Below are positions 44,859-63,874 of a stretch of DNA of 64,000 nt, one piece after another; position 1 is the stretch's first letter, and the number at the start of each line of letters is the position of its first letter. The notes under the pieces are model-generated. The model saw only the letters and a list, made by a program, of their open reading frames with translations. It was not told the origin of the DNA and did no database searches. The stretch spans positions 2,093 to 66,092 of the forward strand of contig CAZWZQ010000012.1 in assembly GCA_964638955.1 (NCBI GenBank). Direction: 5' to 3'. The translations under genes and the position numbers were made by a program. Source of the stretch: an uncultured Rikenellaceae bacterium (GTDB lineage Bacteria > Bacteroidota > Bacteroidia > Bacteroidales > VadinHA17).

Positions 44859-46679
44859 ATGAACAAAATAAAACTGCTGCTGAAATATATCAGGCCCTAT
44901 AAAAGGCCTGCTTTTAATAGTGTAATATTCAATATTCTCAGTGCTCTGTTTGCTCTTGTATCATACACCCTTGCAATTCCATTTCTGAAAATCCTGTTTA
45001 ACAGGGTGGAGAGTGTGTCCTATCCCGGAGAATTTCAGATGACATTTGAATACGCAAACGAATTCTACAGATACTATTTATCAATGTTCATTGAGAAGAA
45101 CGGACAGGTAGGAGCTTTACTACTGGTGAGCCTTGTTTTTATTGTAGCCAGCCTTCTGAAAAATGGCTTCGTCTTTCTTGCAAACAACAGCATGGCATAT
45201 ATAAGATCCTGTACGGTCCGGGACCTGAGGAAAAAAATGTATAACAAGGTGCTTAATCTGTCATTATCATATTTCACGGATGCCCGTAAGGGAGATATAA
45301 TGACCAGGGTTTCGAATGATGTACAGGAAATAGAAATATCAGTAATGTCTTCATTAACAATGATTTTCAGGGACCCTATGTACATCATAATTTTTGTTGT
45401 ATACCTGTTTGTCAGCAGTTACCAGCTTACATTGTTCGCACTTATGCTGTTACCTGTCAGCGGCTGGCTCATAGGACGGGTTAGCCGGACATTACGGTCA
45501 TCATCAATTATTCAGCAGGAGAATCTGGGACGTCTCTTGTCGGTGGTGGAAGAAACTCTTACGGGGCTAAGAATCATAAAGGGATTCAATGCCGAAAAAA
45601 AGATGAAGGAACAATTCGATACAACGAACAAAAAGTACTCAAAAACATTCAAGAGAGTAATACGCAGGCATTACATGGCACTCCCGCTCAGTGAGTTCCT
45701 GTCAACGATAGTGATCATTGTTCTGATGTATATCGGGGGGATACTTGCCCTCAGGGGGGGAGGAAATATGACACCTGACAGGCTTATAGCCTATCTTATT
45801 ATCTTTTCACAGATCATACAGCCTGCAAAAAATATTACAACGGCATGGTTCAGCATACAGAAGGGAATGGCATCGATCGACAGGGTAGATCAGATACTTG
45901 AAGCCGAGGTAAAGATCAACGAAAAAGAAAATGCACTTCCGATAAAGGAATTCAATGATTCAATAGAGTTCAGAGGAATATGGTTTGCATATAACAGCGA
46001 ACCGGTTCTTCAGGATATTAATCTGGTGATAAAGAAAGGACAGACAGTAGCTGTGGTTGGTAAGTCGGGAGCCGGTAAATCGACGCTGGCTGACCTTCTT
46101 CCACGGTTTATTGACCCTGACAATGGCTCTATACTCGTTGACGGTAAAGATATCAGTGATCTCAAAATAAAAGACCTTCGTCATCTGCTCGGAATTGTGA
46201 GCCAGAATCCTATCCTTTTCAATACGTCATTCACTGAAAACATAGCTTTTGCTCTTGATACATTCGATATGAAGGATGTCGAAAATGCTGCCTGTATTGC
46301 AAATGCTCATGAATTTATTATGGAAACTGAACATGGATATGACAATACGGTTGGAGAGGGTGGAAATAAGCTGAGCGGAGGGCAGCGGCAGAGGATTAGC
46401 ATTGCAAGGGCAATAATGGCAAATCCGCCTATCCTTATCCTCGATGAGGCAACATCTGCCCTGGATACCGAATCGGAACGTCTTGTTCAGGATGCAATAC
46501 TGAAACTGATGGAAAACAGAACATCAATTGTTATAGCACACAGGTTGTCAACAATTCAGCATGCTGATGTTATAGTCGTTATTGATGAAGGCAAAATTGT
46601 TGAAAAGGGTACACATGACGAACTGATTGGAAAAGAGGATGGATTTTATGCAAAACTGCATAGTTTTCAGGCTATCTGA
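44859..46679 (+). CDS. MsbA-like ABC exporter (TMD+NBD)
   Basis: GKSGAGKST, LSGGQRQR, ILDEATSALD. Confidence 0.9.
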   Translation: MNKIKLLLKYIRPYKRPAFNSVIFNILSALFALVSYTLAIPFLKILFNRVESVSYPGEFQMTFEYANEFYRYYLSMFIEKNGQVGALLLVSLVFIVASLLKNGFVFLANNSMAYIRSCTVRDLRKKMYNKVLNLSLSYFTDARKGDIMTRVSNDVQEIEISVMSSLTMIFRDPMYIIIFVVYLFVSSYQLTLFALMLLPVSGWLIGRVSRTLRSSSIIQQENLGRLLSVVEETLTGLRIIKGFNAEKKMKEQFDTTNKKYSKTFKRVIRRHYMALPLSEFLSTIVIIVLMYIGGILALRGGGNMTPDRLIAYLIIFSQIIQPAKNITTAWFSIQKGMASIDRVDQILEAEVKINEKENALPIKEFNDSIEFRGIWFAYNSEPVLQDINLVIKKGQTVAVVGKSGAGKSTLADLLPRFIDPDNGSILVDGKDISDLKIKDLRHLLGIVSQNPILFNTSFTENIAFALDTFDMKDVENAACIANAHEFIMETEHGYDNTVGEGGNKLSGGQRQRISIARAIMANPPILILDEATSALDTESERLVQDAILKLMENRTSIVIAHRLSTIQHADVIVVIDEGKIVEKGTHDELIGKEDGFYAKLHSFQAI

Positions 46680-46734: not shown

Positions 46735-46778
46735 TCAGTTTTAAAAGACTATAAGATATTTATTTGATATACAGTAAG

Positions 46779-48596
46779 ATGATTAAAAAAATTACTATTA
46801 TTCTGATCATTCTGAGTATGATTCTTACCTCTGCTTCTTTCAAGGATAAGAAGGCAAAGCATACATTTAAATTCAGCGAGACGGAATTCCTGCTCGATGG
46901 CGATCCATTTCAGATAATAAGCGGGGAGCTGCATCCTGCCAGGATACCTTCTGAATACTGGAGGCACAGAGTTAAAATGGCAAAGGCAATGGGATGCAAT
47001 ACAATATCAGCATATATTTTCTGGAATTACCACGAACAGGAAGAGGGAGTATATGATTTTTCGACCGGTAGCCATAATATCAGGGAGTTTATTGAAATAG
47101 TGAAGGATGAAGGGATGTGGCTTATTGTAAGACCCGGCCCCTATGTATGTGCTGAATGGGAGCTTGGAGGAATACCTCCATACCTCCTCCGCATTCCTGA
47201 TATAAAACTGAGGAGTACAGATACACGATATATGGCTGCCGCTGAGAGATATATGGCAAGGCTGGCGGAAGAGATAAAACCTTATGTGATTACGAATGAC
47301 GGTCCTATTCTGATGATCCAGATCGAAAATGAATACGGCAGCTATGGCAATGATAAGGATTATATATCCAGACTAAGGGAAATATGGCTTGAGAACGGAA
47401 TAAATGTTCCTGCATTTACCGGTGACGGTCCCTCAATAAAAATGCTGGAAGCAGGAACTCTTCCGGGTTGTGCTGTTGGACTTGATTCAGGAAGTTCTGA
47501 GAGTGACTTTGAACTTGCCATGAAAATAAATCCGGGAGTGCCTGTATTCAGCAGCGAAACATATACCGGCCGGCTTACACACTGGGGTGAGGAGTGGGCC
47601 AACCCTGATACTACTGAACTTCTAAAAGAGGTTAAGTTCCTGATGGACAACAGGAAATCATTTAACCTGTATGTTATTCACGGAGGCACCAACTTTGGGT
47701 TCACTGCGGGAGCCAATTCGGGACGAAAAGGTTATGAACCCGCTGTTACAAGCTATGACTACAATGCACCGATAAATGAACAGGGAAAGCCGACATCAAA
47801 ATATATGTCACTACGCAAATTGATAGGGTCCTATCTTCCGGGGAAGGAAAAACTACCTCCAATACCTGACTCCATACCGGCAATAGAAGTCCAGCTGATA
47901 TTTCCTACCCATTTTACATCAATATGGGACAATCTCCCGCAACCTGTTAATTCGGAAAAGCCACTGACATTTGAAGCCTGTGGTCAGGATTATGGTTTTA
48001 TTCTGTACAGGACTGAACTAACAGATAAGAAATGCGGAAAACTTACTGTGACCGGTATCCATGATTATGCAACGGTCTTTATTGATGGTAAGTACCTGGG
48101 TAATCTTGACCGGAGGGAAGATATTGATACAATAACTATCCCCGAAACCTCTTCGGCCAGTCCGGTTCTTGAATTGCTTGTAGAAGGTATGGGAAGAATC
48201 AACTATGGTCCTGAGTTGTATGACAGGAAAGGTATAACCGGCAGTGTCAAACTTGATGAGATGACCCTTGATAACTGGCAGATTTATAATCTGCCAATGG
48301 ACCATAAATTCATTTACGAACTTCGTTCTTCAAGTAAAATTGTTAATAAGCCCGGTATTTTCTTCAAGGGAAATTTTTCACTTGCTTATACAGGCGATAC
48401 GTATATTGATATTGCAAATTACAAAAAGGGTATTGTCTGGGTTAACGGGCACAATCTTGGTCGCTACTGGGATGTAGGTCCACAGAAAAGACTCTTTTGT
48501 CCTGCATCATTCATAAGGCCGGGAATAAACGAGATAATTATACTTGACCTGCATCTGACTCAGCCTAAACCTGTTGCGGGAATGCCTGCAATGTGA
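46779..48596 (+). CDS. Secreted GH35 beta-galactosidase
   Basis: Signal peptide, SGELHPARIP, QIENEYG (acid/base), SETYTG (nucleophile), YVIHGGTNFG. Confidence 0.9.
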   Translation: MIKKITIILIILSMILTSASFKDKKAKHTFKFSETEFLLDGDPFQIISGELHPARIPSEYWRHRVKMAKAMGCNTISAYIFWNYHEQEEGVYDFSTGSHNIREFIEIVKDEGMWLIVRPGPYVCAEWELGGIPPYLLRIPDIKLRSTDTRYMAAAERYMARLAEEIKPYVITNDGPILMIQIENEYGSYGNDKDYISRLREIWLENGINVPAFTGDGPSIKMLEAGTLPGCAVGLDSGSSESDFELAMKINPGVPVFSSETYTGRLTHWGEEWANPDTTELLKEVKFLMDNRKSFNLYVIHGGTNFGFTAGANSGRKGYEPAVTSYDYNAPINEQGKPTSKYMSLRKLIGSYLPGKEKLPPIPDSIPAIEVQLIFPTHFTSIWDNLPQPVNSEKPLTFEACGQDYGFILYRTELTDKKCGKLTVTGIHDYATVFIDGKYLGNLDRREDIDTITIPETSSASPVLELLVEGMGRINYGPELYDRKGITGSVKLDEMTLDNWQIYNLPMDHKFIYELRSSSKIVNKPGIFFKGNFSLAYTGDTYIDIANYKKGIVWVNGHNLGRYWDVGPQKRLFCPASFIRPGINEIIILDLHLTQPKPVAGMPAM

Positions 48597-48645: not shown

Positions 48646-49899
48646 TTAGTTGATTTCGAACAATCTGCAGATGTGCCTCTCGTAAATATTTTCATATACA
48701 CATTGTCCTATTCTCTTTTCATTTGTTTCCAGCAGGTTCAGGTACTCATCTTTTTTCATGGCAGCAAGCTTGTATGCAACGTGCATAAGTTGTCTCAAAT
48801 TGGGATTATAATACCTGCTTTCAGGATTATGTTTCAGGGCAGCGGCAAATTTTCTTCCATTCCATCTGGCAACATCCTGTTTTTTTGGCAGTAATGATGT
48901 ATTAATATTTATCACATCGGCATATGGCGCACAGAGCTCTTCAATTCTTTTCAGTGCTTCATAATAAAGAGATTTTACAAATGACAGGGCTTTTTCCCCT
49001 GATTCCGTGAGCCCGATAACCTCTTCAAGCCATGTGGTGCCGGCAGTTTTAAGATGAATACCCTTATCGTGCTTTCTTATTATTGATCCTATAAAAGGAT
49101 AGATAGAAAACTTATCTGAACCGGAATGAACACTAATCTTGAGATTCTGAGGAAGTCCAAATTCCTTAACAGCAAAATCAATTACCATCAGGTCTGCTTC
49201 AAACTCATCTGCAAAATCCTCCGGGTCACCAACATAGTCAATACCTTTATTGAATCTACCTGAAAATCTGGGAGCAATAGTCTGAACAGGAATACCTTCT
49301 TCACCAAGCATTTTAAGGATGAAAAATAACTCTGCAGGTGTCTGTGGTTGTGGCACTTCATCCATGGATACTTCAGTAATGAAATTCCCTTTACCTCTTA
49401 ACTTTTCTATTTTTCTGTATATTTCCCGGGCCTTGATCATTGCAAAGAGATATTTTTCAGCAATGGCAGCTATCTGGTTGATACTGATATCCAGAGACCT
49501 TTTTAATCCCGGAATTTTCAACTTCCCGGAGTATTTTTCAGCTCCTGTAAGAAATGTCTGTATTTCATCGTTTCCGGCTCTCTGACCTATGGAGGATGCA
49601 ACATCTATTGTAAAGAAATCAGAACTTTTGATGAACCTGTCAACCGTTTCAAAATTAATATGGTCCGCATCCACATAATAGGATTTTTTGAAGCCTGCTT
49701 TTTTTATTACCTCATCAACCTCTCTCCTCACATCGTCCGGTTGCGATCCGATAATGATATGTTCCCTGTTTGATTTGTTCCAGACCGGGGTTATTTCAAT
49801 CCCGTGTCTGCCGGCTTCAATTATTGCATTAAGCTGAGCAGATCCCTGACGGCCGAACCTGTCACCTATGCCAAGTGAATATTTCCCCAGTTTAATCAT
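48646..49899 (-). CDS. uxaE: Tagaturonate-fructuronate epimerase family
   Basis: DADHIN, ISVHSGSDKFSIY, HLKTAGTTWLEE. Confidence 0.85.
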   Translation of the reverse strand: MIKLGKYSLGIGDRFGRQGSAQLNAIIEAGRHGIEITPVWNKSNREHIIIGSQPDDVRREVDEVIKKAGFKKSYYVDADHINFETVDRFIKSSDFFTIDVASSIGQRAGNDEIQTFLTGAEKYSGKLKIPGLKRSLDISINQIAAIAEKYLFAMIKAREIYRKIEKLRGKGNFITEVSMDEVPQPQTPAELFFILKMLGEEGIPVQTIAPRFSGRFNKGIDYVGDPEDFADEFEADLMVIDFAVKEFGLPQNLKISVHSGSDKFSIYPFIGSIIRKHDKGIHLKTAGTTWLEEVIGLTESGEKALSFVKSLYYEALKRIEELCAPYADVININTSLLPKKQDVARWNGRKFAAALKHNPESRYYNPNLRQLMHVAYKLAAMKKDEYLNLLETNEKRIGQCVYENIYERHICRLFEIN

Positions 49900-49928
49900 C
49901 GCTGATAGTTTAATATATTAATAGTCAT

Positions 49929-50984
49929 TTATATAAAGAAATCAACATTTTCCGAAGTAACAATATCTACAGGTAAATATTCCATTTTTGCCGGTACTTT
50001 ATTAAGCGAAAGAAAGTCAAAGAGTTTTCTGATTCCTTTATATGCTTGTTCTTCAGGCCTTTGTCCAATGAGGAACTTAATTGTACCTGATTTAAGGTAT
50101 TCCACATTTTTATCAAGAAGGTCATACCCTATCAGATTTAAAGAACCAGTGCCTTCCGATTCAATAAAGTCAGCTATCTTGTACGATTTGGAGCCTGTTA
50201 CAAATATTGTGCGTATTTCAGGATTTTTCATCAGTGTTTTACCGGCTTCCTTCCTTATGTTTTCGGGCACAGGGTCTGAGATACGGAGTTTAACTATCTT
50301 TCCCTTGTTATTGGCTGATCCGGAAAAATAGCTCAGGAATCCTTCTGTTCTGATGTTGAGATGCTGGACATTCTTTAGGTTCTTAACCATATTTACGATA
50401 AGAATATCATTGTTGACTGGTGTTATCATATCTGTAAGCTGACCTGCCACGCGGGCGCTCTGAAAGATATCCTCACCGGTATATGAAAGAAATTCGGATT
50501 CTTTAAGATAGCCATCAAGAAAAACGAAAGGAATATGCTTTCTTGTAAGATTGTTGCAGAAATATATTGATTCGGCTTTAAAGAGGGGTGCAAGAATAAC
50601 ACCGTCAGGATTCATTTCAATGATATCGCCTGCTTTTTGCTGGAAATGTTTCTCATTGAGCATATCATAAGTAACCTGGCTCAATCTTACCGGAAATGGA
50701 TCGAGTTCATTCATTGCCCTTTGTAACCCCAGTGAATGTTTTATCCAGAAAGCATTATCTTCATCTGGTTCAGGAAGAAGTGATACCAGGTGGAATTTCT
50801 TCGTGGATTTAAGTGCTCTTGCAATATAATTCGGGGAATATTTAAGGTCTTGCACGATTTTCAATATTTTCTCCCGGGTTCTTTCTGCCACTTCACCTCT
50901 CTCATGCAGAACCCTGTCAACAGTTCCTATCGAGACACCTGCACGTACTGCAATATCCTTTATCCTTGCTTTTTTTGAAGGCAT
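49929..50984 (-). CDS. LacI-family regulator of the uronate cluster
   Basis: IKDIAVRAGVSIGTVDRVL HTH followed by a periplasmic-binding-protein fold. Confidence 0.9.
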   Translation of the reverse strand: MPSKKARIKDIAVRAGVSIGTVDRVLHERGEVAERTREKILKIVQDLKYSPNYIARALKSTKKFHLVSLLPEPDEDNAFWIKHSLGLQRAMNELDPFPVRLSQVTYDMLNEKHFQQKAGDIIEMNPDGVILAPLFKAESIYFCNNLTRKHIPFVFLDGYLKESEFLSYTGEDIFQSARVAGQLTDMITPVNNDILIVNMVKNLKNVQHLNIRTEGFLSYFSGSANNKGKIVKLRISDPVPENIRKEAGKTLMKNPEIRTIFVTGSKSYKIADFIESEGTGSLNLIGYDLLDKNVEYLKSGTIKFLIGQRPEEQAYKGIRKLFDFLSLNKVPAKMEYLPVDIVTSENVDFFI

Positions 50985-50986
50985 TG

Positions 50987-52285
50987 TTAGTCAAGAACTA
51001 CCTTTTTGTTTTTTGGTGCAAAAACCGTCAGTATTATCCATGCCAGAAGATAAGCGCTTCCTGCAATGGAAAACATCACGACATAGCCTGTTTCAATAGA
51101 TCCCAGGTTCTTGAAGTGTTGGAGTATGCCGCCTGCTATATATGAAATAAATGCGCCGCCGATAGCACCTGCCATTCCACCGATTCCTGTAGCTGAGCTG
51201 ATAGCTTTCTTGGGGAATGCGTCTGAGACAGTTGTAAAGAGGTTAGCTGACCAGGCCTGGTGTGATGATGCTGCCAGGGCAATCAGACAAACAGCTCCCC
51301 AGTTGCCTATCGAAGGTGATTGGGCAAACACTATTGGTATGACCAGCAGTGCAAAGATAAGCATAGTCATTTTTCTTGCTTTGTATGGAGTCATTCCCTT
51401 TTTTATCATATAGCCTGAGACCCATCCTCCACCTATGCTCCCTACTGTGGTCATTGTATAAATGAAGGCAAGAGGCAATCCGAATGATGATACAGTGAGA
51501 CCTGCACCTCGTACAGTTGAAAGCCAACCAGGTATCCAGAACAGGTAAAACCACCAGATCGGGTCAGTTAGTCCTTTCCCTATAAAGAAGAGCCATGTCT
51601 GGCGATACTTGAGAAGCTTCAGCCATGAGACCTTTTCTTTAGTTTCTGCCTGTTCATCTGCATCACTATTAATATAAGCAAGTTCTCCTGCTGATACCTT
51701 TTTATGTTTTTCCGGTACTTCATAGAAAATGAACCAGAGAATTACCCAAAGGAAGCCTAATGCTCCAGTGATGATAAATGCTGCCTGCCATCCCCATGCA
51801 ATAACCATTGCAGGAATAGCCAGTGGTGCCAATATTGCCCCAACATTTGTTCCTGAATTGAATATACCAAAAGCAAGAGCCCGCTCTTTCTTCGGGAACC
51901 ATTCGGCGACCGACTTATTACCTGCAGGAAAGTTACCAGCCTCACTTATTCCGAGGAAACCTCTCCAGAATCCGAAACCCCACACACCTTTGGCCAGAGC
52001 ATGCCCCATTGCTGCAATACTCCATAAAATAACGGTAACACCATATCCAATTTTAGTCCCGAATTTATCTATCAGGCGACCGGCTATGACCATACCAACA
52101 CCATATAAGAGTTGAAAGGCCATGATGATATGCGAATAATCTTTTTCACCTATGCCGAGATCTGACTCCAGCAGGGGTTTTAATATCCCTATTACCTGCC
52201 TGTCGAGGTAGTTCACAGTCGTGGCAAAAAATATAAGTGCACAGACTGTCCATCTGTAGTTACTGAGTTTTTTTATTTCAGACAT
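50987..52285 (-). CDS. exuT: MFS hexuronate transporter
   Basis: VNYLDRQ, EAGNFPA, EWFPKKERA, DPIWWFYLFW. Confidence 0.88.
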   Translation of the reverse strand: MSEIKKLSNYRWTVCALIFFATTVNYLDRQVIGILKPLLESDLGIGEKDYSHIIMAFQLLYGVGMVIAGRLIDKFGTKIGYGVTVILWSIAAMGHALAKGVWGFGFWRGFLGISEAGNFPAGNKSVAEWFPKKERALAFGIFNSGTNVGAILAPLAIPAMVIAWGWQAAFIITGALGFLWVILWFIFYEVPEKHKKVSAGELAYINSDADEQAETKEKVSWLKLLKYRQTWLFFIGKGLTDPIWWFYLFWIPGWLSTVRGAGLTVSSFGLPLAFIYTMTTVGSIGGGWVSGYMIKKGMTPYKARKMTMLIFALLVIPIVFAQSPSIGNWGAVCLIALAASSHQAWSANLFTTVSDAFPKKAISSATGIGGMAGAIGGAFISYIAGGILQHFKNLGSIETGYVVMFSIAGSAYLLAWIILTVFAPKNKKVVLD

Positions 52286-52309
52286 AATCTATTATTTAAT
52301 AAAGAGATA

Positions 52310-53770
52310 TCAGACATTATATGTTGATGATGAGGTCGTTCCGCCACGGCCTGTCCAGTTGGTATGGAAAAACTCACCCCTCGGTTTATCGATACGTTCA
52401 TAGGTGTGTGCCCCGAAATAATCCCTCTGGGCCTGGAGCAGGTTTGCCGGGAGTCTTTCACAGCGATATCCGTCAAAATATCCCAGGGCAGAAGATATTG
52501 CCGGTACAGGAATGCCGTTTGCCACCGAAGCAGAAACAACATTTCTCCAGCCTTTTTGTGCATTCTCGACCTTCTGTTTGAAGAATGGATCAAGCAGCAG
52601 ATTGGTGATGGAAGGATTATTGTCAAATGCCTCCTTTATCTTACCCAGAAATGCAGAACGTATTATACAGCCTCCACGCCACATCAGTGCAATTCCACCG
52701 TAATTCAGATCCCAATTATACTCCTGTGCAGCAGCTCTCATCAGGGTATAACCCTGTGCATATGAGACTATTTTTGAAGCATAGAGAGCCTCCTTAAGAT
52801 CATTTATGAAACCAGCCTTTTCCCCTTCGAATGAGGGAGACGGCCCTCTGAGAATCTTTGACGCTTTTACCCTTTCCTCCTTTACTGCCGACAGGCATCT
52901 TGAAAAAACAGCCTCACCGATGAGGGTGAGAGGTATCCCAAGGTCAAGTGCAGCAACTCCCGTCCATTTGCCTGTTCCCTTTTGTCCGGCAGTGTCAAGT
53001 ATCTTATCCACAAGAGGTTGTCCATCAGTATCCTTAAATGCAAGAATGTCTCTCGTTATCTCAATCAGGTAACTGTTAAGTTCACCTTCATTCCAGTCTT
53101 TAAAAACGCGATGCATCTCATCGGCACTCATATGAAGAAGATCTTTCATGATCTGGTATGCTTCACATATAAGCTGCATATCACCATATTCAATCCCATT
53201 ATGAACCATTTTAACAAAATGACCTGCTCCGTTTTCTCCAACCCAGTCGCAGCATGGTGTGCCATCTTCTACCTTAGCGGCAATTGCCTGGAATATTGGT
53301 TTCACATGAGGCCAGGCTTCCTTAGAACCTCCGGGCATTATTGAGGGTCCGAGCAATGCACCCTCTTCTCCTCCCGAGACCCCTGTTCCGATATACAGAA
53401 GACCTTTGCTTTCAACCAGAGCGTTCCGTCTATTGGTGTCAGGAAAATGAGTGTTGCCTCCGTCGATTATAATATCACCTTTTTCCAGGTGCGGGATAAG
53501 GGAGCTGATCATAACATCGACTGCACTTCCGGCTTTTACCATAATCATAACTATCCTTGGCTGTTTAAGAGACTTTATAAGTTCCTCTATTGAATGAACC
53601 CCGGCAATATTTTTCCCTTTTGCCCTTCCCTCAATAAAATTGTCAACTTTCTTTAATGTACGGTTATAAACAGTTACACGGAAACCTTTGCTCTCCATGT
53701 TGAGGACAAGATTCTCCCCCATAACTGCAAGCCCTATTAGTCCGATGTCAGATAATGTATTCATAATCAA
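52310..53770 (-). CDS. gnd: NADP-dependent 6-phosphogluconate dehydrogenase
   Basis: GLAVMG, YNRT, KMVHNGIEY, QAQRDYFGAH. Confidence 0.96.
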   Translation of the reverse strand: MIMNTLSDIGLIGLAVMGENLVLNMESKGFRVTVYNRTLKKVDNFIEGRAKGKNIAGVHSIEELIKSLKQPRIVMIMVKAGSAVDVMISSLIPHLEKGDIIIDGGNTHFPDTNRRNALVESKGLLYIGTGVSGGEEGALLGPSIMPGGSKEAWPHVKPIFQAIAAKVEDGTPCCDWVGENGAGHFVKMVHNGIEYGDMQLICEAYQIMKDLLHMSADEMHRVFKDWNEGELNSYLIEITRDILAFKDTDGQPLVDKILDTAGQKGTGKWTGVAALDLGIPLTLIGEAVFSRCLSAVKEERVKASKILRGPSPSFEGEKAGFINDLKEALYASKIVSYAQGYTLMRAAAQEYNWDLNYGGIALMWRGGCIIRSAFLGKIKEAFDNNPSITNLLLDPFFKQKVENAQKGWRNVVSASVANGIPVPAISSALGYFDGYRCERLPANLLQAQRDYFGAHTYERIDKPRGEFFHTNWTGRGGTTSSSTYNV

Positions 53771-53818
53771 ATGAGTATATTATGATAGTCCATTTATTCT
53801 ATTAATTCCTTCATTTAT

Positions 53819-55090
53819 CTATATGAGTCTCTCTTTTGAACTCCACAGTCCTACTGCCGGATTAGAAATATAGAATATTTCCTCTTCATCATCCATTTTA
53901 TTAAAGCCGTCTCTCAGTTTTTTGGAATCATATTTTCTTGTTGTCTCTTCAAGTCCGGCATATTTGAATCCTACGGACTCAATCTCCTCTTTTGTCAGAT
54001 GTCCCGGGCAATATGTAACTGAAAATCTTCCTTCGGTGCTGCCATGAATGAGATGAGCCGCAGCGCTAAGGTTATTCCTGAGATCTTCATTATCTTTTAG
54101 TGCTTCAAGTGTTGCCGGTGTTCCGAAGTAACCATATTTTCTGATCAGTCTGTCAATCTCCTTATCTTCACTAAATTCTTTCAGTCCGGGAGCAAGGACG
54201 ATCAGCTCACCGTTGTCAGCCATTGCCATGCGGGTTCTGTAAATGCTTTTATTACCCAGCCATGTGCTCTTGAATTCTGAAGGATCGAGGTACACAACAA
54301 CCTTCTTCAAAGGCTTTTCAAATAGTGTGAAATTAACCTTAATGGATAATTCGGCAGCCAGTCTGAATACCTCCTCATCATCGCCTATATAAAGACCCCG
54401 GATCACAAGCCTGTCTTTTTCATCATAGCCGATTACGGTATGTACATATACAACAGGCAGGTGAGTAATAAAATGAGATGATGCATAATTAAGCATTGCT
54501 CTTAACGGATTATCAGCCTTTCCCAGGATCCTTTCAATACCGTAAATAGCACCCACAAAATGGCTTTTATTGATCCCCTCAGCACCTCCGGTACCGACAA
54601 AAAGATTCTTATTATAATTTGCCATTCCAGCCACTTCATGCGGAACTACCTGGCCAACAGACAGAATCAAATCATGACCGCCATTGTAAACCAGGTTGTT
54701 GAGCTGGGCCGGCCATGAATAATCCAGAGCTCCGTTTGTTATTTCCGAAATATATTCACCAGGCACGGTACCTGCAGTTACTACATCTTTTCTCCAGTCG
54801 TGGACACGAAACAGATCTTTCGGTACTCCTTTGAACATCTCGCTGATCTGAATATCCGTCATAGGAGCGTGTGTACCCAGGGCCGGGAGGATATCTTTTA
54901 ATCTCTTTCCATAATATTTGTAAAGAAGAACAGTAATATCACCTGCCCTGGAGTGAAACCGTGTAAAGTCAGGAGGAATGATGAGTACTTTTCTCTTTCT
55001 GCCAAGTTTAACAAGGGCAGAATAGAGTCCATATTCGAGGTCGGCAGGACTTATCACCGTATCAGGCGAACCAGTTTGATAGTATGTCAT
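53819..55090 (-). CDS. LarA-superfamily (nickel-pincer) epimerase, probably D-mannonate/D-gluconate 2-epimerase (GntE-like)
   Basis: PDFTR, ALGTH, PHEVAGMANYNKN, SH align by eye with LarA D72/R75, H108, H174/K184, H200; sits between uxuB and gnd. Confidence 0.72.
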   Translation of the reverse strand: MTYYQTGSPDTVISPADLEYGLYSALVKLGRKRKVLIIPPDFTRFHSRAGDITVLLYKYYGKRLKDILPALGTHAPMTDIQISEMFKGVPKDLFRVHDWRKDVVTAGTVPGEYISEITNGALDYSWPAQLNNLVYNGGHDLILSVGQVVPHEVAGMANYNKNLFVGTGGAEGINKSHFVGAIYGIERILGKADNPLRAMLNYASSHFITHLPVVYVHTVIGYDEKDRLVIRGLYIGDDEEVFRLAAELSIKVNFTLFEKPLKKVVVYLDPSEFKSTWLGNKSIYRTRMAMADNGELIVLAPGLKEFSEDKEIDRLIRKYGYFGTPATLEALKDNEDLRNNLSAAAHLIHGSTEGRFSVTYCPGHLTKEEIESVGFKYAGLEETTRKYDSKKLRDGFNKMDDEEEIFYISNPAVGLWSSKERLI

Positions 55091-55169
55091 TGTTAATCAA
55101 TGAATTATTATGATGTTATTCTTATATGTTGATGTATATGGCATATCGCATATCATAAATTGCCTATCT

Positions 55170-56006
55170 CTATACTCCGCTGTACGCACTGAACCCTCCA
55201 TCGACAGGTATGACCACACCAGTCACAAATTTCGACAGATCAGAAGCAAGATATATCAATGTCCCTGTAAGTTCATCCGGCGTACCGTATCTTTCCATGG
55301 GTGTACTGTTTATGATCTTCATTCCCCTTGGTGTTGATTCACCTGTCTTTTCGTCAACCAGAAGGAACCTGTTCTGATCAGTAAGAAGAAAACCGGGTGC
55401 TATTGCATTTACCCTGACACCTGTTTTGGAAAAATGTACAGCGAGCCATTGTGTGAAATTATTGACAGCCGCTTTAGCTGCAGAATACGCAGCAATTTTT
55501 GTCAGCGGCCGGTATGAATTCATCGAAGAGATATTTATTATCACGCCAGATCTCTTCTTAACCATGTCTTCACCAAACACCATTGAGGGTATCAGGGTTC
55601 CCTTGAAGTTCAGATCAAAGACCTTGTCAAAACCTTCCAGCCTGAGACCGAAAAAGGTATCTTCAGGATTTTCTTCTCCCTCTATTCTTTCAACTTTGGT
55701 TGTGGCGTCAGGTGAGTTGCCACCTGCGCCGTTTACAAGAATATCCACCATGCCAAATTTGCTGTTCACATCTCTTTTTGCCGCTTCAAGGGTATTCCTG
55801 TCAAGGACATCAGCTGAAATTCCCAGGCACGGAATTCCATATTCTTTTTCGATTTCTGAGGCTGTTACAACAGCTTTGTCTGTATTTCTATCAAGGATGA
55901 CAATCTTCACTCCATGTGCGGCCATCGATCTGGCCATCGCTGAGCAAATAACTCCGGCGCCTCCGGTAATTACTGCTACTTTATCTTTAAGGTTCAATTC
56001 ATTCAT
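55170..56006 (-). CDS. uxuB: SDR D-mannonate oxidoreductase (fructuronate reductase)
   Basis: TGGAGVIC, YSAAK, NAIAPGFLLTDQNRFLL; directly after uxaC. Confidence 0.82.
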   Translation of the reverse strand: MNELNLKDKVAVITGGAGVICSAMARSMAAHGVKIVILDRNTDKAVVTASEIEKEYGIPCLGISADVLDRNTLEAAKRDVNSKFGMVDILVNGAGGNSPDATTKVERIEGEENPEDTFFGLRLEGFDKVFDLNFKGTLIPSMVFGEDMVKKRSGVIINISSMNSYRPLTKIAAYSAAKAAVNNFTQWLAVHFSKTGVRVNAIAPGFLLTDQNRFLLVDEKTGESTPRGMKIINSTPMERYGTPDELTGTLIYLASDLSKFVTGVVIPVDGGFSAYSGV

Positions 56007-56095
56007 TAATTTATTTCTAATTTCTTATTTGAATTCTTATACCTCTCCCCGGGCGGGAGGCATTTTTAATATTTTGCATAAGAGGAGGTGAGGCA

Positions 56096-57493
56096 TCAAA
56101 ATCCAAAATACTCCTTTGCATTTTTGTAAGATATTCCTTCTATCAATGGTTTAAGAAGCTCTTCCTCATCGGGTATGAGTCCCTTTTCAACCTGCTCTCC
56201 GACATAGTTGCATACGAGACGTCTGAAGTATTCGTGGCGGGGGTAGGAGAGAAAGCTTCTGGAATCAGTCACCATTCCCACAAATCTTCTTAACAGACCA
56301 AGGGACGAAAGATCTCTTAAATGCTTTTCCAAACCGTTTTTCTGATCAAGAAACCACCAGGCAGCACCATACTGAACCTTTCCGGGCGATGAACCATCAT
56401 TAAAATTGCCGGCCATCGTAATAAACATCTCGTTATCGGAGGGATTAAGGTTGTATAGTATGCTCTTCGCAAGCTGATCTGTTTCATCCAGGCTGTTTAA
56501 AAATCCTGACATTTTAAGGGCATCCTGGGGAGCTCCGATTGAATCCCATCCGGTATCGGGACCCATTTGTCTGAACAAGCGGCTGTTGTTATTTCTTATT
56601 GCTCCTGCATGAAATTGTTGTGTCCAGCCTCTCTTGTGATTCATACGGCATAATTCTGTCATTATCGCAGTCCTGTATTTCTCTGACTCCTCGCATGATA
56701 CTGCTTTTCCTGCGAGCAGTTTTTTGAATATACTGTCAGCCTCCGAGGCAGTAAAAGGAGCAAAATAGAAACGATCAAGACCATGATCCGACAACCTTGT
56801 ACCCATATCATGAAAAAACTGATGCCTCCGGTCAACCATTTCAATAAGGTCATCGAAGGTTTGGATCTGCTTCCCGCAAGCTTCTCCCAACTTTTCAATA
56901 TATGACCTGAATTTCACAGTATCATCTGTTTTTATCAGGTTGTCGGGACGGAATGCAGGCAGTACTTTTACCTCAAATGAGTCTTTTAGTCTTTTGTGAT
57001 GTTCAAGATTATCTGCCGGATCATCAGTGGTGCATACAATTTCGACATTCATCTTCCTTAGCAGTGCTCTGATGCTGTATTCTTCAGACTGAAGGAGTGT
57101 ACTTGCTTTTTCGTAAATCCCTTTTGCCGTTGACGGGGACAGAAGTTCGAAGATCCCAAAGTACCTTGCAAGTTCAAGATGTGTCCAGTGATATAACGGA
57201 TTCCCGACAGCTGCCGGCACTGTTTCTGCCCATTTACCGAATTTGTCGGGATCGGAAGCATTCCCCGTGCAGTATTTTTCGTTGACCCCGTTTGTCCTCA
57301 TTGCACGCCACTTATAATGATCGCCTTCAAGCCATGCCATGGTAAGGTTTTCAAACCGGCGGTCGTCTGCTATCATTTCAGGAGAGAGATGACAATGGAA
57401 ATCAATTACAGGCTGATTATCAGAGTATTGATGATATAATCTTATTGCTGTTTCGTTGTCAAGGAGGAAATTTTCATGAATGAACGGTCTCAT
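56096..57493 (-). CDS. uxaC: Uronate isomerase (start moved to ATG 57493)
   Basis: IDFHCHL, DHYKWRAMR, GAAWWFLDQ, TDSRSFLSYPRHEYFRR. Confidence 0.95.
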   Translation of the reverse strand: MRPFIHENFLLDNETAIRLYHQYSDNQPVIDFHCHLSPEMIADDRRFENLTMAWLEGDHYKWRAMRTNGVNEKYCTGNASDPDKFGKWAETVPAAVGNPLYHWTHLELARYFGIFELLSPSTAKGIYEKASTLLQSEEYSIRALLRKMNVEIVCTTDDPADNLEHHKRLKDSFEVKVLPAFRPDNLIKTDDTVKFRSYIEKLGEACGKQIQTFDDLIEMVDRRHQFFHDMGTRLSDHGLDRFYFAPFTASEADSIFKKLLAGKAVSCEESEKYRTAIMTELCRMNHKRGWTQQFHAGAIRNNNSRLFRQMGPDTGWDSIGAPQDALKMSGFLNSLDETDQLAKSILYNLNPSDNEMFITMAGNFNDGSSPGKVQYGAAWWFLDQKNGLEKHLRDLSSLGLLRRFVGMVTDSRSFLSYPRHEYFRRLVCNYVGEQVEKGLIPDEEELLKPLIEGISYKNAKEYFGF

Positions 57494-57542
57494 ACGGGAA
57501 AAGTTTTTAAGATGACAAGTCAATTCTGCAATATAACAAATA

Positions 57543-57568
57543 TATTTTCGTTAACGATAACGAAAATA
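57543..57568. promoter_or_regulatory. Candidate operator overlapping the uxaC promoter
   Basis: TATTTTCGTTA-ACGA-TAACGAAAATA (11-4-11); TATATTTG -7 element on the minus strand at 57537-57544. Confidence 0.55.
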
Positions 57569-57769: not shown

Positions 57770-58606
57770 ATGAAAGTTGAGTTACGATACGCTTCACATC
57801 CCATTGATTTTAAGAGTTATCACACAGATAAGATCAGAAAGGAATTCCTGATTGAAAAGATATTTGATACAGATGAGATTTTACTGGTTTATTCATTATA
57901 TGACCGTTATATTGTTGGCGGAGCTATGCCTGTAAACAGGTCTCTTGTTCTTGAATCAGCAGATGATCTTAAATCAGGTTATTTCCTTGAGAGAAGGGAG
58001 ATGGGTATAATAAATGTAGGTGGCAAGGGAATAATTGAAACTTCAGAAGGAAATTATGAACTTGCCTACAAAGAGGCATTATATCTCGGAAAAGAGATTA
58101 AGGAGGTTGTTTTCAGATCGGCCGATCCGCTCAAACCATCCAGGCTGTATATCAACTCTGCCCCGGCTCATCATAAATACCCGACAAAAAAAGTGACTCT
58201 TAAAGATGCTGAAGTTGCAATATTGGGAACTCCGGAAAAATCGAACCATCGAACAATAAATAAATTACTGGTTAACAGTGTTTTACCTACATGCCAGATG
58301 CAAATGGGTATGACTGAGCTTAAACCGGGAAGTGTATGGAACACGATGCCTGTTCATACTCATAACAGAAGGATGGAGGCTTATTTCTACTTTGAAATAC
58401 CAGAGCAACAGGCTGTTTGTCATTTCATGGGAGATCCGGATGAAACTCGTCATATCTGGTTGAGAAATGAACAGGCCGTACTTTCTCCTTCATGGAGTAT
58501 TCACAGTGCAGCCGGCACATCAAATTATACATTTATATGGGGAATGGCAGGTGAGAATCTCGATTACAGCGATATGGATGTCAGATATCCGGACACACTG
58601 AAATAA
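57770..58606 (+). CDS. kduI: 5-keto-4-deoxyuronate isomerase
   Basis: FLERREMG, WNTMPVHTHNRRMEAY, SPSWSIH, MAGEN. Confidence 0.93.
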   Translation: MKVELRYASHPIDFKSYHTDKIRKEFLIEKIFDTDEILLVYSLYDRYIVGGAMPVNRSLVLESADDLKSGYFLERREMGIINVGGKGIIETSEGNYELAYKEALYLGKEIKEVVFRSADPLKPSRLYINSAPAHHKYPTKKVTLKDAEVAILGTPEKSNHRTINKLLVNSVLPTCQMQMGMTELKPGSVWNTMPVHTHNRRMEAYFYFEIPEQQAVCHFMGDPDETRHIWLRNEQAVLSPSWSIHSAAGTSNYTFIWGMAGENLDYSDMDVRYPDTLK

Positions 58607-58616
58607 AAGATTATTT

Positions 58617-59411
58617 ATGAAAGAACTATTTGATCTTACCGGAAAGGTTGCTCTTGTAACAGGAGGAACGCATGGTATCGGACTGGCGATCGGCCTTGTT
58701 CTTGCAAAAGCAGGAGCAAAAGTATGCGTCAATGATATCATGGGTGAAAAACTGGATAGCTGCAAGGCAGAATTTACAAAGAAAGGACTTGATGTTTATA
58801 CTCTGGAATTCGATGTGACTGTTGAAGCAGATGTTGACAGGGGAATATCACAGATAGAGAAAAATATAGGCACAATTGATATCCTGGTCAATAATGCAGG
58901 GATCATAAAACGCATTCCGATTTTGGAAATGCCTCTCTCCGATTACAAACAGGTAATTGATGTAGACCTTGTTGCACCACTGATTGTATCGAAACGTGTA
59001 GTACCGGGTATGATCGAAAAAAGAAGCGGCAAGATCATCAATATGTGTTCAATGATGAGCGTATATGGAAGGAATTCGGTATCTGCATATGCTTCAGCTA
59101 AGGGAGGACTTAAACTTCTGACACAAAATATGACATGTGAATGGGCAAAATATAATATACAGATTAACGGCATTGGTCCCGGATATATTGAAACTGCCCA
59201 AACAGCTGCGATCCGGGAGGATGCTCATCCCTTCAATGATCTGGTCATGACCCGTACCCCGGCAGGCAGATGGGGTAAACCTGAAGATGTAGCCTATGCG
59301 GCACTTTTTCTTGCTTCAAAAGCTTCAGACTTTGTTAACGGCCATATATTATATGTTGATGGCGGTATACTTGCCAATTTCGGTTACATAAAAGGTGAAA
59401 ACGAAGTCTAG
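58617..59411 (+). CDS. kduD: KduD / gluconate 5-dehydrogenase-type SDR
   Basis: TGGTHGIG, NNAGIIKR, YASAK, RTPAGRWG; follows kduI. Confidence 0.82.
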   Translation: MKELFDLTGKVALVTGGTHGIGLAIGLVLAKAGAKVCVNDIMGEKLDSCKAEFTKKGLDVYTLEFDVTVEADVDRGISQIEKNIGTIDILVNNAGIIKRIPILEMPLSDYKQVIDVDLVAPLIVSKRVVPGMIEKRSGKIINMCSMMSVYGRNSVSAYASAKGGLKLLTQNMTCEWAKYNIQINGIGPGYIETAQTAAIREDAHPFNDLVMTRTPAGRWGKPEDVAYAALFLASKASDFVNGHILYVDGGILANFGYIKGENEV

Positions 59412-62016: not shown

Positions 62017-62444
62017 CTGGTATATTTTAATCGCAGGTCAACCTTCCTGTCATAAACATAGTAACAAGATTCATCACAGGAGACCTCATCGTATAAAACC
62101 CTGGGTGTAACAGAATTGATGACAATATATTTTGCATCGCTGGAATATGTTGCAGTTATAGTATATAGTTTATTTACCGGAACATTATGGGTAATAGTAG
62201 CCGATAGTGTGGAGAATGATTCAACTAATATAGAGTCTTCAAGATAACCGTCGTATATATTGACCGTTATAAATGTTGGAGATTTATCAAGTTTGATATT
62301 AAGTATTGCAGTAACAGGTTCATCAGAGGTACATTCAGAACATTTAATGAACCCTGTTACCGGCTTTTCGCAGGAGAAGAATACCACCAGTATTATAAAT
62401 ACAAGAGTATTTCTGAGTTTTCCTATATTGCCTCCTAGTACCAT
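62013..62444 (-). CDS. Hypothetical lipoprotein
   Basis: Hydrophobic stretch ending FFSC, a Bacteroidota-type lipobox; CIKCSEC and CDESC Cys motifs. Confidence 0.65.
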   Translation of the reverse strand: MVLGGNIGKLRNTLVFIILVVFFSCEKPVTGFIKCSECTSDEPVTAILNIKLDKSPTFITVNIYDGYLEDSILVESFSTLSATITHNVPVNKLYTITATYSSDAKYIVINSVTPRVLYDEVSCDESCYYVYDRKVDLRLKYTR

Positions 62445-63874
62445 TTGATTATTTTTACCGGTGCTCTTTCATTATCAAAAAAGAAGTTATAGGAGACTCC
62501 AAATCTGCCCCATACTGGTCCTATCCTGTGAAAATCAGTATTCATGAATTCAACGCCCGATATTAAAATAATGTTGTTCTTTATCCATTTGAGGCTGATA
62601 CACGGGATCACTTTGAAGCAGTTATCTGGCCTGATTAAGGTACCTTTAAACTTGCTTCCGAATGAATAAGCTGCAGATAATGAAGGAGAAAGGAGAATGT
62701 TGCTTTTAAACATATTATCGGTAAGGGGAAAATCTTTAAACACCCCTGCATGTACTATTGAACTCCTGTCAAGGTACTGGTAATACAGATAATCGCTTTC
62801 CTTTACCAGTACCCGTGTATGCCATAATTTGGTATCAAGGCCTGCAATGAATCCAAGGTTCAGGAGAGGCTCCTTGAATGCGAAACTGATACCGGTGAAT
62901 ATATCCCTGAAATCCGACTTGAATGATAATGTTAATGCCAGCTGATCTACCTCAAGTTTCTTGTTTGTAGGAAATTCATTCCTTTCCAGGAGTTTAATAA
63001 TATCCTTTCGGCTGTATCTGACTGCTATATTATAAGGATTTATAGCTTTTCTTTCAGGGTCGGTCCACCTGTCACCGGATTTAATAAGTATCTCTGCTGC
63101 ATTTTCCTGGTCGGCCCTTATGGTTATATCCAATGCATCCCATCGGTACTTGTTTTGAGTATATATATCGACTCCTTTTTGCCTGAGAAGATTCATTATG
63201 AGTGTATCTCCGTTTTGTGCGGCGATCAGAAATGGTGTAAATCCCTCATTATCCCTTGCTTCCATATTTGCGCCATTCTGGATAAGAAGATCGGCAACAT
63301 TAGCATGACCAGCCCATATTGCAGCCATCAGGGGAGTTGTGCCATCAAATGCCTTTTGATCAGTTTCAGCCCCATAGTATAGAAGAAGATCGGTGATATA
63401 TATGTATCCGTATATAGATGCATAGTGTAGTGGTGCAGCCCCGTAATTATCTATATAATTTACTTCGGCCCCATATCGTATCAGGGTTTCTGCTATTTCA
63501 AAGTTTTGATTCCTGACAGCTATTGTCAGAGGTGTTTCGTACCTGTTTGTAATCCTGTTTACATCGGCACCATATTTAATAAGTATATATGCACTTTTCG
63601 TCTTGTCGTTTTGAACAGCGAAAATAAGCGGAGTGGCACCCTCTTCTGTCTCAATATCAATATCAGCTCCCATAAGGGCCATTCTTTCTATCTCTGTGTC
63701 GTATCCTTTTGAGGCTGCAATCATCAGGTTGTATTCAAGAGCACCGAATGAGGAAAGAGGAAGATATTCTGAAGTATCGATATTAACTATTTCAGCCTGT
63801 GGTAATACCTTTAAAGATATAACCATAAAGTCTATAAGCAGAAAAATGTGCTTTAATGACATTTTTTTTGACAT
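62435..63874 (-). CDS. Exported ankyrin-repeat protein with a C-terminal beta-strand-rich domain
   Basis: Signal peptide; about seven ankyrin repeats (GATPLIFA, ETPLTIA, AAPLHYA, GTTPLMAA, GFTPFLIA); TAACTTTG -7 element at 63883-63890. Confidence 0.8.
   Translation of the reverse strand: MSKKMSLKHIFLLIDFMVISLKVLPQAEIVNIDTSEYLPLSSFGALEYNLMIAASKGYDTEIERMALMGADIDIETEEGATPLIFAVQNDKTKSAYILIKYGADVNRITNRYETPLTIAVRNQNFEIAETLIRYGAEVNYIDNYGAAPLHYASIYGYIYITDLLLYYGAETDQKAFDGTTPLMAAIWAGHANVADLLIQNGANMEARDNEGFTPFLIAAQNGDTLIMNLLRQKGVDIYTQNKYRWDALDITIRADQENAAEILIKSGDRWTDPERKAINPYNIAVRYSRKDIIKLLERNEFPTNKKLEVDQLALTLSFKSDFRDIFTGISFAFKEPLLNLGFIAGLDTKLWHTRVLVKESDYLYYQYLDRSSIVHAGVFKDFPLTDNMFKSNILLSPSLSAAYSFGSKFKGTLIRPDNCFKVIPCISLKWIKNNIILISGVEFMNTDFHRIGPVWGRFGVSYNFFFDNERAPVKIIKWY

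Follow-up and report, generated by a model that had tools for sequence, protein, structure and literature searches.

A 64,000-nucleotide stretch of contig CAZWZQ010000012.1 (assembly GCA_964638955.1; referred to below, at its full length, as the window) carries a hexuronate operon that contains a homolog of LarA, an enzyme of the nickel-pincer-nucleotide (NPN) type. Seven co-directional minus-strand genes, uxaC, a short-chain dehydrogenase/reductase (SDR) gene, the LarA homolog, gnd, a major facilitator superfamily (MFS) transporter gene, lacI and uxaE, occupy positions 48646-57493 and are separated by gaps of 2-89 bp. The best explanation of this arrangement, to which we give slightly better than even credence as a whole, is a LacI-repressed hexuronate operon whose LarA homolog, a member of group 18 of the LarA homologs (LarAH18), would act as an epimerase together with a PfkB kinase and Gnd. 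That D-mannonate is carried to 6-phosphogluconate and ribulose-5-phosphate through these proteins is probable, and the chances that the epimerase acts ahead of the kinase are about even. What we observe is which genes are present, that catalytic and cofactor residues are kept, that synteny is conserved, that natural fusions with a kinase occur and that a candidate operator is conserved; the substrates throughout, the activity of group 18 as an epimerase, the part played by the kinase and the sequence of reactions are inferred.

The host is an uncultured salt-marsh Bacteroidales bacterium. A protein identical to the LarA homolog was found on 22 Joint Genome Institute (JGI) contigs, the locus was present in at least 24 salt-marsh metagenome runs, and the closest species-level genomes, which are those of uncultured Bacteroidales, showed at most 82% identity. 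The genes of the operon and of the divergent pair adjoining it are as follows.

48646-49899, minus strand: uxaE, tagaturonate/fructuronate 3-epimerase, 417 aa (PF16257, 187 bits; Cohnella UxaE structure PDB 6IL9, E 1e-25)
49929-50984, minus strand: LacI-family regulator of the operon (PF00356 and Peripla_BP_4)
50987-52285, minus strand: ExuT-like MFS transporter, presumed hexuronate importer (MFS_1, E 6e-58; anion:cation symporter / D-galactonate-transporter subfamily)
52310-53764, minus strand: gnd, NADP-dependent decarboxylating 6-phosphogluconate dehydrogenase (TIGR00873, 783 bits, cut-off 427)
53819-55090, minus strand: LarAH group-18 NPN enzyme, putative D-mannonate/D-gluconate (or 6-phospho-hexonate) 2-epimerase (NF052594, 643 bits, cut-off 500)
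55170-56006, minus strand: SDR-type D-mannonate oxidoreductase (fructuronate reductase, UxuB function; PRK08277, 401 bits, cut-off 281)
56096-57493, minus strand: uxaC, glucuronate/galacturonate isomerase (PF02614, E 1e-199; NF002794, 607 bits)
57770-58606, plus strand: kduI, 5-dehydro-4-deoxy-D-glucuronate isomerase, divergent from uxaC (NF002091, 421 bits)
58617-59411, plus strand: kduD-type SDR (best model gluconate 5-dehydrogenase PRK07097, 427 bits; KduD models 230-256 bits)

In the proposed route, glucuronate or galacturonate would be imported by the ExuT-like transporter and isomerized by UxaC to fructuronate or tagaturonate, UxaE would turn tagaturonate into fructuronate, and the SDR reductase would convert fructuronate to D-mannonate. 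Mannonate would then not be dehydrated by UxuA; LarAH18 would invert it at C2 to D-gluconate, by transient abstraction of a hydride at that carbon with a covalently bound NPN. A PfkB-family hexonate kinase (of a clade called 2 below, encoded next to pgi elsewhere in the genome) would phosphorylate C6, and the operon's Gnd would oxidatively decarboxylate 6-phosphogluconate to ribulose-5-phosphate, CO2 and NADPH. This NADPH would repay the reductant spent by the SDR, and the conversion of uronate to pentose phosphate would be redox-neutral overall. The divergent kduI-kduD pair would produce 2-keto-3-deoxygluconate (KDG) from unsaturated uronates, and the operon would be under LacI repression. 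Conserved synteny, gluconokinase-epimerase fusions and retained signature residues of the gluconate epimerases (GntE), each described below, strengthen the core of this route.

Gene content and identity of the LarA homolog

A preliminary description of this DNA, made from the sequence alone, had given the gene order as uxaC-uxuB-LarA homolog-gnd-exuT-lacI-uxaE, and all seven genes were recovered at their positions with the model matches listed above. The ATG start of gnd at 53764 was taken from JGI gene calls. The uxaE product belongs to a subtype with a short N-terminus that also occurs in 42 relatives (median 417 aa). The transporter scored 229 bits against TIGR00893, under the cut-off of that model, and hexuronate is its presumed substrate by gene context. 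Likewise, adjacency to kduI suggests that the kduD-type SDR makes KDG in the unsaturated-uronate branch.

The absence of uxuA, uxaA, uxaB, kdgK and eda from the window, also part of that description, was confirmed by Pfam scans and tblastn. Pfam scans, which covered the remaining open reading frames (ORFs) of at least 120 aa, found no uxuA, kdgK, eda, larB, larC, larE, GntK or PfkB gene in the window; tblastn with the UxuA, KdgK, Eda, clade-2 PfkB, LarB, LarC, LarE, PdxB and GntK of relatives gave no match in the window at E <= 1e-3, and uxaA and uxaB were likewise missing from it. The window contained no kinase of the FGGY, SKI or PfkB type that could take gluconate to 6-phosphogluconate, and the 10 kb beyond either window end contained no uxuA, kdgK, eda, larB, larC, larE or kinase gene. 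The dehydratase (UxuA or UxaA), KdgK and Eda of the canonical Ashwell pathway are thus absent from the window and its flanks. Of the components of the Thermotoga-type route, UxaC, UxaE, a fructuronate reductase and Gnd are clustered with the epimerase, and a gluconate kinase inside the cluster (FGGY GntK in Thermotoga) is missing from the window.

These results alter the route as first described. The sequence from uronate through fructuronate and mannonate to C2 epimerization and Gnd is still the best explanation of the gene content, but as written it lacked a gluconate kinase, and the window has none. The phrase "bypassing the KDG route" was too strong, since the adjoining kduI and kduD, on which the preliminary description was silent, as it was on the missing kinase, would themselves make KDG; KdgK and Eda must therefore exist elsewhere in the genome. 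It is the mannonate dehydratase step alone that is replaced, and the KDG route is supplemented, not abolished.

The LarA homolog is a full-length member of NCBIfam NF052594 ('nickel-dependent putative hexonate epimerase', NPN_18), which corresponds to LarAH group 18, and its only sequence match in the PDB is 4NAR, GntE2 of Thermotoga maritima (E 5e-37). Both sequence and fold homology place it in the LarA superfamily. By alignment, its residues D41, R44, H74, H151, K161, H177 and K281 fall on catalytic, NPN-tethering and nickel-ligand positions, and 104-105 of 106 family members have the same residues there. This bears out the earlier statement that the LarA cofactor residues appear retained. 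Every one of the residues D72, R75, H108, H174, K184, H200 and K298 of Lactiplantibacillus plantarum LarA (5HUQ) has an equivalent in the window protein. Counterparts are kept of the NPN residues K184 (the tethering lysine), H200 (the nickel-ligand histidine) and R75, and the window's K161, H177 and R44 align with K164, H180 and R41 of GntE2; the catalytic H108, H174, D72 and K298 correspond to H74, H151, D41 and K281. The alignment recovers the residue numbers published for GntE2. The window protein shares the LarA fold and presumably the same NPN-based, proton-coupled hydride transfer, whereas its pocket reads E-V-A-H in place of F-F-W-T/E/Q and no larBCE operon adjoins it.

That pocket signature consists of E152-V153 and A345-H346 together with W277 and, like the pair N280-K281, is nearly invariant in the 106 family members; residues were mapped to LarA numbering (F175, F176, W358, T359) by way of the GntE2 alignment. 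In a 2024 study, an 'E, V, A, H' pocket (V or S at the second position) with a tryptophan of helix alpha11 marks GntEs, and F-F-W marks lactate racemases (PMC11770544). The likeness to GntE proposed in the preliminary description therefore holds for the signature residues but not for the group: the window protein belongs to LarAH group 18 and lies outside the assayed groups 19, 20 and 15, of which GntE1, GntE2 and LarAH15 epimerize D-mannonate in vitro (PMC7583248, PMC11770544). On this comparison of residues, the window protein would be an NPN-dependent C2 hexonate epimerase.

Labels given by JGI pipelines ('nickel-dependent lactate racemase') and a weak match to Pfam Lar_N would fit an ordinary lactate (or malate) racemase that came by chance to lie in a sugar-acid operon, which was also the identity that the preliminary description had named as fatal to the route. 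The LarA equivalog model NF033504 gave no match at E <= 0.001, models for malate racemase stayed at 18-28 bits, far short of their cut-offs of 462-500, E-V-A-H stands where lactate racemases have the signature F-F-W-(E/Q), and the neighbours are hexuronate genes, not lactate genes. We regard this explanation as extremely improbable, and a lactate racemase was rejected as the identity of the protein on model scores and pocket residues.

The invariant residues R285, R287, H349, S351 and R355 of group 18 differ from GntE2, a difference that does not decide between a free and a phosphorylated substrate, and no decisive phosphate-binding signature was identified in LarAH18 from its sequence. An AlphaFold2 model was built on a shallow alignment (78-100% identity) and had low confidence over the active-site segments. 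All 19 of its significant Foldseek matches were LarA-family structures, with 4NAR first (TM 0.57), at a mean pLDDT of only 58; a model of this quality did not permit analysis of the pocket or of a phosphate site.

Conserved gene neighbourhood and the hexonate kinase

A scan that took a single genome for each species found relatives of LarAH18 in at least 593 species genomes, mostly in Bacteroidales and also in some Verrucomicrobiota, Ignavibacteria and Acidobacteriota. ORFs were called and clustered in the best 80 loci and two long metagenome contigs (82 relatives in all), and genes within 6 kb of the epimerase were counted in the 48 loci whose sequence extends 6 kb or more to either side of it. 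An SDR gene was present in 42 of these 48 loci, gnd in 38, uxaC in 33, uxaE in 31, an MFS transporter gene in 27 and a candidate kinase gene in 23, and uxuA in one. A Pfam census of 120 other neighbour families showed nothing recurrent, with no UxaA, UxaB or FGGY among the families listed. The association of the epimerase with gnd and the near-absence of mannonate dehydratase support a diversion of mannonate to 6-phosphogluconate. The arrangement of the cluster is more than chance, being kept across relatives.

Three architectures were distinguished. The first, that of the window, is kduD<kduI<>uxaC-SDR-LarAH18-(GFO oxidoreductase)-gnd-MFS-(lacI)-uxaE, and its kduD<kduI<>uxaC layout is kept in 28 loci. 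The second is SDR-PfkB-LarAH18-(GFO)(PdxB)-gnd, often with a separate uxaC-PfkB-eda in the same locus, and the third combines the SDR, a pyrophosphate (PPi)-phosphofructokinase-like protein, a HAD-like protein, LarAH18 and gnd. Stand-alone PfkB-LarAH18-gnd trios occur as well, for example in locus L057. In three of the 82 relatives, uxuA lies in one operon with SDR, PfkB and LarAH18 (L048:8768-9988, L073:433-1602 and L082:6816-7985), and in these genomes the KDG and 6-phosphogluconate routes truly part at mannonate.

Some loci carry additional genes beside the epimerase. An oxidoreductase of the GFO_IDH_MocA type, possibly a sugar or sugar-acid dehydrogenase, stands between LarAH18 and gnd in 37 of the 82 relatives (L011, L012 and L027:11269-12264 among them) and is not in the window. 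The same position is taken in 14 loci, including L080:12328-13458, by a PdxB equivalog (NF001309, 4-phosphoerythronate dehydrogenase, 455 bits, cut-off 434). Enzymes of this type oxidize the C2 hydroxyl of a phosphorylated hydroxy acid, and the gene may hint at phospho-hexonate intermediates or reflect mere synteny. In an 823-aa protein (P0142, with 4 cluster members), LarAH18 is naturally fused to a domain of the AGE family (cellobiose/mannose 2-epimerase-like), by which a second C2-epimerase chemistry is joined to the nickel enzyme.

The neighbourhood also bears on whether the epimerase acts on mannonate at all. It could instead have another substrate (altronate/allonate, idonate/gulonate or an aldarate) or run in reverse from gluconate towards UxuA and KDG, in which case uronate flux would pass through uxuA and kdgK-eda elsewhere in the genome and gnd would serve for NADPH or be merely co-regulated. 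The activity of group 18 is a prediction from sequence, GntE1 of C. glutamicum is suspected of having another native substrate (PMC7583248), the adjoining kduI-kduD pair needs KdgK and Eda somewhere in the genome, and the three operons with uxuA fit such a reading. Against this, gnd lies by the epimerase in 38 of the 48 full loci, across several phyla, and uxuA in only one; PfkB-LarAH18-gnd trios stand on their own; fusions with a gluconokinase point to gluconate or mannonate; and the operon's own reductase makes mannonate while UxaE draws tagaturonate off altronate. We therefore consider a different substrate or direction unlikely.

The kinase that this route requires can be approached through natural fusions. 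Four independent clusters at 50% identity are fusions of a GntK/IdnK-type gluconokinase domain (TIGR01313, 124-180 bits, cut-off 114) to LarAH18, with the kinase domain N-terminal in all four, and they were found on several independent contigs, one of them from Pirellulaceae. The PfkB kinases encoded as separate genes in the neighbourhood form two clades, with 27% identity between them. Clade 1 (about 345 aa) adjoins eda and scores as KDG kinase; clade 2 (357-359 aa) is about 77% identical within the clade and matched no curated equivalog. A PfkB gene adjoining LarAH18 or one gene away from it was found in 27 cases, 23 of them in clade 2. Several loci with a clade-2 gene hold a separate KdgK-Eda pair, Carboxylicivirga linearis (L049) has both clades, and in three loci of the window type (L023, L032, L037) the clade-2 gene is found beyond uxaE, at a distance of one to four ORFs.

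A clade-2 gene mapped at 80% likeness on four salt-marsh runs led to a contig of the same depth as the window, and a 30-mer from the overhang of this contig led to JGI salt-marsh contigs L099-L104. Two of these, L102 and L103, with a GC content of 0.39-0.40, encode a PfkB of 359 aa that shares 74-77% identity with clade 2 and 33% with clade 1. Over eight runs the depth of the contigs was 25.7, 15.7, 31.3, 27.8, 10.3, 9.9, 9.9 and 7.3, compared with 25.6, 15.2, 31.9, 28.8, 10.1, 10.4, 10.6 and 7.0 for the window (r = 0.999 over 8 metagenomes; r = 0.68 for a control contig). Coverage covariance and GC content, evidence of the grade used in binning, thus make it likely that the window organism owns the LarAH18-associated PfkB kinase. 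On L102 the gene (4385-5464, minus strand) lies directly downstream of pgi (5644-6987, minus strand), among housekeeping genes and off the uronate operon. Short-read assemblies break within the clade-2 gene in several runs, which suggests strain-level variation there. Another JGI match, the multi-member PfkB entry P0325, came from an unrelated sample and was discarded.

Which of the two enzymes acts first is a separate question. If the kinase came first, the clade-2 PfkB (or its PFK-like or GntK-like counterparts) would be a D-mannonate 6-kinase, and LarAH18 would be a 6-phospho-D-mannonate/6-phospho-D-gluconate 2-epimerase feeding Gnd. Extracts of L. suebicus turn over mannonate only with ATP, via 6-phosphomannonate to 6-phosphogluconate (PMC6978723), the kinase gene precedes LarAH18 in all 27 loci as the kinase domain does in all four fusions, and a PdxB equivalog, an enzyme of 2-hydroxy-acid phosphates, stands between LarAH18 and gnd in 14 loci. 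Moreover, LarAH18 has invariant basic residues, R287 and R355, that GntE2 does not have at those positions, and the assayed GntEs show a millimolar Km for free mannonate. The closest assayed relatives, however, share the E-V-A-H signature and reach turnover rates of up to 197 s-1 on free D-mannonate (PMC7583248), the fused kinase domains score as GntK/IdnK gluconokinases, and E. coli GntK refuses mannonate, as far as the work cited in PMC6978723 is reported there. Gene order is also no proof of reaction order, since gntE precedes gntK in T. maritima (PMC3750489), and a phosphate-binding site is not identifiable from the sequence. We look on the kinase-first order, the chief rival to the proposed one, as rather doubtful. 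To the same extent we are tentative about a broader possibility, that LarAH18 and the linked PfkB clade, with its PPi-PFK-like and GntK-like counterparts in other lineages, account for the two orphan activities of L. suebicus, 6-phospho-D-mannonate 2-epimerase and D-mannonate 6-kinase. GntEs would then take phosphorylated hexonates as their substrates in the cell, and this would account for a millimolar Km on the free acid.

In seven loci (L029:7722-9008, L054:3115-3996, L019, L028, L033, L034 and L064) two genes take the place of PfkB upstream of LarAH18, a pair encoding the PPi-phosphofructokinase-like protein (PRK14072, 379 bits) and the HAD-like protein, which has 293 aa and gave no match in Pfam, NCBIfam or the PDB. 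This pair may be an alternative system for hexonate phosphorylation.

Regulation, cofactor supply and surrounding genes

Two candidate regulatory elements lie upstream of uxaC.

57537-57544, minus strand: candidate Bacteroidetes -7 promoter box TATATTTG, of the form TAnnTTTG, read from the sequence, 44 nt upstream of the uxaC ATG
57545-57566, no strand assigned: candidate LacI operator, the 22-bp palindrome TTTTCGTTAACGATAACGAAAA, abutting the -7 box

TAnnTTTG is the -7 consensus of Bacteroides promoters. The core pattern of the palindrome, TTCGTTANNNNTAACGAA (14 specified bases), has one perfect match in the window, at 57547-57564. A related motif, TTCGTGATCGTTAACGAA, was found 57-77 bp upstream of the uxaC ORF in 10 relatives, of which 8 have a LacI gene in the cluster and 2 are truncated loci, and it was found in none of the 13 complete clusters that have no LacI gene. 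The palindrome is thus a phylogenetic footprint for the operon's LacI repressor, and we predict that it is the operator.

An NPN enzyme depends on LarB, LarC and LarE for its cofactor. In the isolate Saccharicrinis sp. FJH62, larE (TIGR00268, 288 bits), larC (TIGR00299 and LarC2) and larB (NF033503, 301 bits) lie 4.5 kb from LarAH18-gnd, and LarC is common among related Marinilabiliales and Prolixibacteraceae. The window itself encodes a group-4 membrane-bound [NiFe] hydrogenase together with hypF, hypD, hypE and hypB; the organism thus handles nickel, and nickel acquisition is to be expected. These genes belong to a hydrogen-metabolism island (13250-27133, minus strand; 27321-33568, plus strand; 35540-38987, plus strand) that also holds Mrp-antiporter-like subunits, a HycI-like protease, a Rex-like regulator and a HydABC-type [FeFe] hydrogenase, and that shows disposal of reductant as H2. 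Between the hyp genes and the [FeFe] hydrogenase, at 33571-35316 on the minus strand, lies the gene for a 581-aa protein with a C-terminal domain of the histone-deacetylase family and a long N-terminal region to which Pfam gave no match.

Among the other genes of the window, a transketolase gene (11092-13152, minus strand) lies about 40 kb from the operon and is not linked to the cluster; its product would process the pentose phosphate produced. A glycoside hydrolase family 35 (GH35) beta-galactosidase gene (46764-48596, plus strand) is convergent with uxaE and follows a gene of the ABC exporter type (44859-46679, plus strand). This GH35<ABC< pair also stands after uxaE in about 10 relatives, which suggests a link to the galactan side chains of pectin. 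At the other side of the operon, 62435-63874 (minus strand) encodes an ankyrin-repeat protein of 479 aa, after which come two small ORFs that matched no family; in many metagenome-assembled genomes of Bacteroidales, the block Ank-f18-...-DUF5698-f10 keeps synteny with the kduD-kduI flank of the cluster. The first part of the window (229-11049, plus strand) is densely packed with signalling genes, which encode a YfiR-like DUF4154 protein, two large hybrid histidine kinases rich in PAS domains, a fusion of response regulator and histidine kinase, a response regulator joined to a SpoIIE-type phosphatase and one more PAS histidine kinase. A TonB-dependent Plug protein is encoded directly upstream of the window (L095).

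Comparison with known routes and significance

The pectin-induced operon aldH-pelB-gnd-uxaRED-gntEK of T. maritima (PMC3750489) clusters uxaE, gntE, gntK and gnd, in agreement with the preliminary description. For this organism, a route that takes mannonate into the pentose phosphate pathway is reported to have been proposed in 2012, and GntE activity was demonstrated in 2020, when GntE2 was shown to convert D-mannonate to D-gluconate with the NPN (PMC7583248). GntE2 (TM0442, LarAH group 20, 4NAR) and the window protein, judged by sequence, share membership of the NPN-dependent LarA superfamily, the catalytic and cofactor residues and a loop signature, and in both organisms the epimerase gene is clustered with uxaE, an SDR fructuronate reductase and gnd. 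They differ in that the window protein is of group 18, not 20, with N280 where GntE2 has G286 and V153 where it has S156; the window operon has no FGGY gntK, the partner kinase being likely a PfkB paralog encoded elsewhere; the regulator is of the LacI type instead of the GntR-type UxaR; and the host is a mesophilic member of the Bacteroidales. T. maritima also keeps kdgAK-uxuBA.

The hybrid isomerase-phosphoketolase pathway of L. suebicus likewise leads by UxaC, UxaE and UxuB to mannonate and on to 6-phosphogluconate and its dehydrogenase (6PGDH), with the same redox-neutral logic (Valk et al. 2020, PMC6978723). Its order, kinase and then 6-phosphomannonate epimerase, was measured in extracts, whereas the route in the window is predicted from its genes. 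With the canonical Ashwell pathway of E. coli and gut Bacteroides (UxaC, UxuB/UxaB, UxuA/UxaA, KdgK, Eda), the window has in common the entry steps by UxaC, fructuronate reductase and ExuT-like uptake, as well as a KduI/KduD branch to KDG, which here adjoins the operon. In contrast to that pathway, the window has no UxuA, UxaA, UxaB, KdgK or Eda, and has UxaE, LarAH18 and Gnd instead.

Several points weigh against the reading proposed here. A kinase, larB, larC and larE are found neither in the window nor within 10 kb of either end, and the PfkB contig is tied to the window genome by coverage covariance and GC content, not by physical linkage. When the larBCE genes of Saccharicrinis were mapped on salt-marsh metagenome runs to look for the lar genes of the window population, the larB-like match was a single 95-nt piece of 80% identity, on depth-matched contigs (23.5, 15.1, 30.9 and 25.7, against 25.6, 15.2, 31.9 and 28.8 for the window). 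The window protein is only about 24% identical to GntE2, and for group 18 the authors of the 2020 study give 'a hexonate' as a hypothesis only (PMC7583248). There may be a uxuA elsewhere in the genome, and no RNA runs carrying the locus were found. Finally, the assayed GntEs have a high Km for mannonate, 4-120 mM (PMC7583248, PMC11770544), and L. suebicus extracts phosphorylate mannonate first (PMC6978723), so that the free acid is not secure as the substrate.

A tracer experiment suggested in the preliminary description, in which loss of C1 as CO2 from 13C-labelled uronate would reveal the route, needs correction, because Gnd releases the C6 carboxyl of the uronate, not C1. As the KDG route also ends with the C6 carboxyl as C1 of pyruvate, release of 13CO2 alone does not tell the two routes apart.

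The preliminary description knew of no demonstration of this route in Bacteroidota, and full-text literature searches found no experimental work on a mannonate to 6-phosphogluconate route in that phylum. The gene context and the idea of a hexonate epimerase, on the other hand, are already present in Desguin et al. 2020, whose Table S1 lists for group 18 an SDR (36%), 6PGDH (32%) and a ribokinase-family kinase (16%), together with MFS, UxaC and KduI (PMC7583248), a context that matches the window locus with no difference in kind. In NCBI records, close homologs from Bacteroidetes bear the name 'D-mannonate epimerase'. Both the idea and its genetic setting were thus already on record in the literature (2012-2020) and in annotation databases, and the discovery is incremental; new here are the dedicated PfkB clade, the fusions with a gluconokinase, the finding that uxuA is almost never a neighbour, the candidate operator and a distribution over at least 593 species genomes. 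Valk et al. regarded the redox-neutral route as attractive for engineering the conversion of pectin waste (PMC6978723).

If the proposed route is true, 'incomplete' galacturonate modules in metabolic reconstructions would read differently, and the loci described here would supply gene candidates for a hexonate kinase and for the group-18 NPN epimerase. In anoxic sediments and guts, a major supply of carbon comes from the uronic acids of pectin, alginate, hemicellulose and glycosaminoglycans, and the textbook KDG route splits uronates to pyruvate and glyceraldehyde-3-phosphate. A large group of environmental Bacteroidales, and others, would instead turn uronates into pentose phosphate and CO2 at no net cost in reductant. 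This would change the predicted fermentation balances, here in an organism with both [NiFe] and [FeFe] hydrogenases, and it would make the use of uronates dependent on nickel and on the larBCE cofactor pathway.

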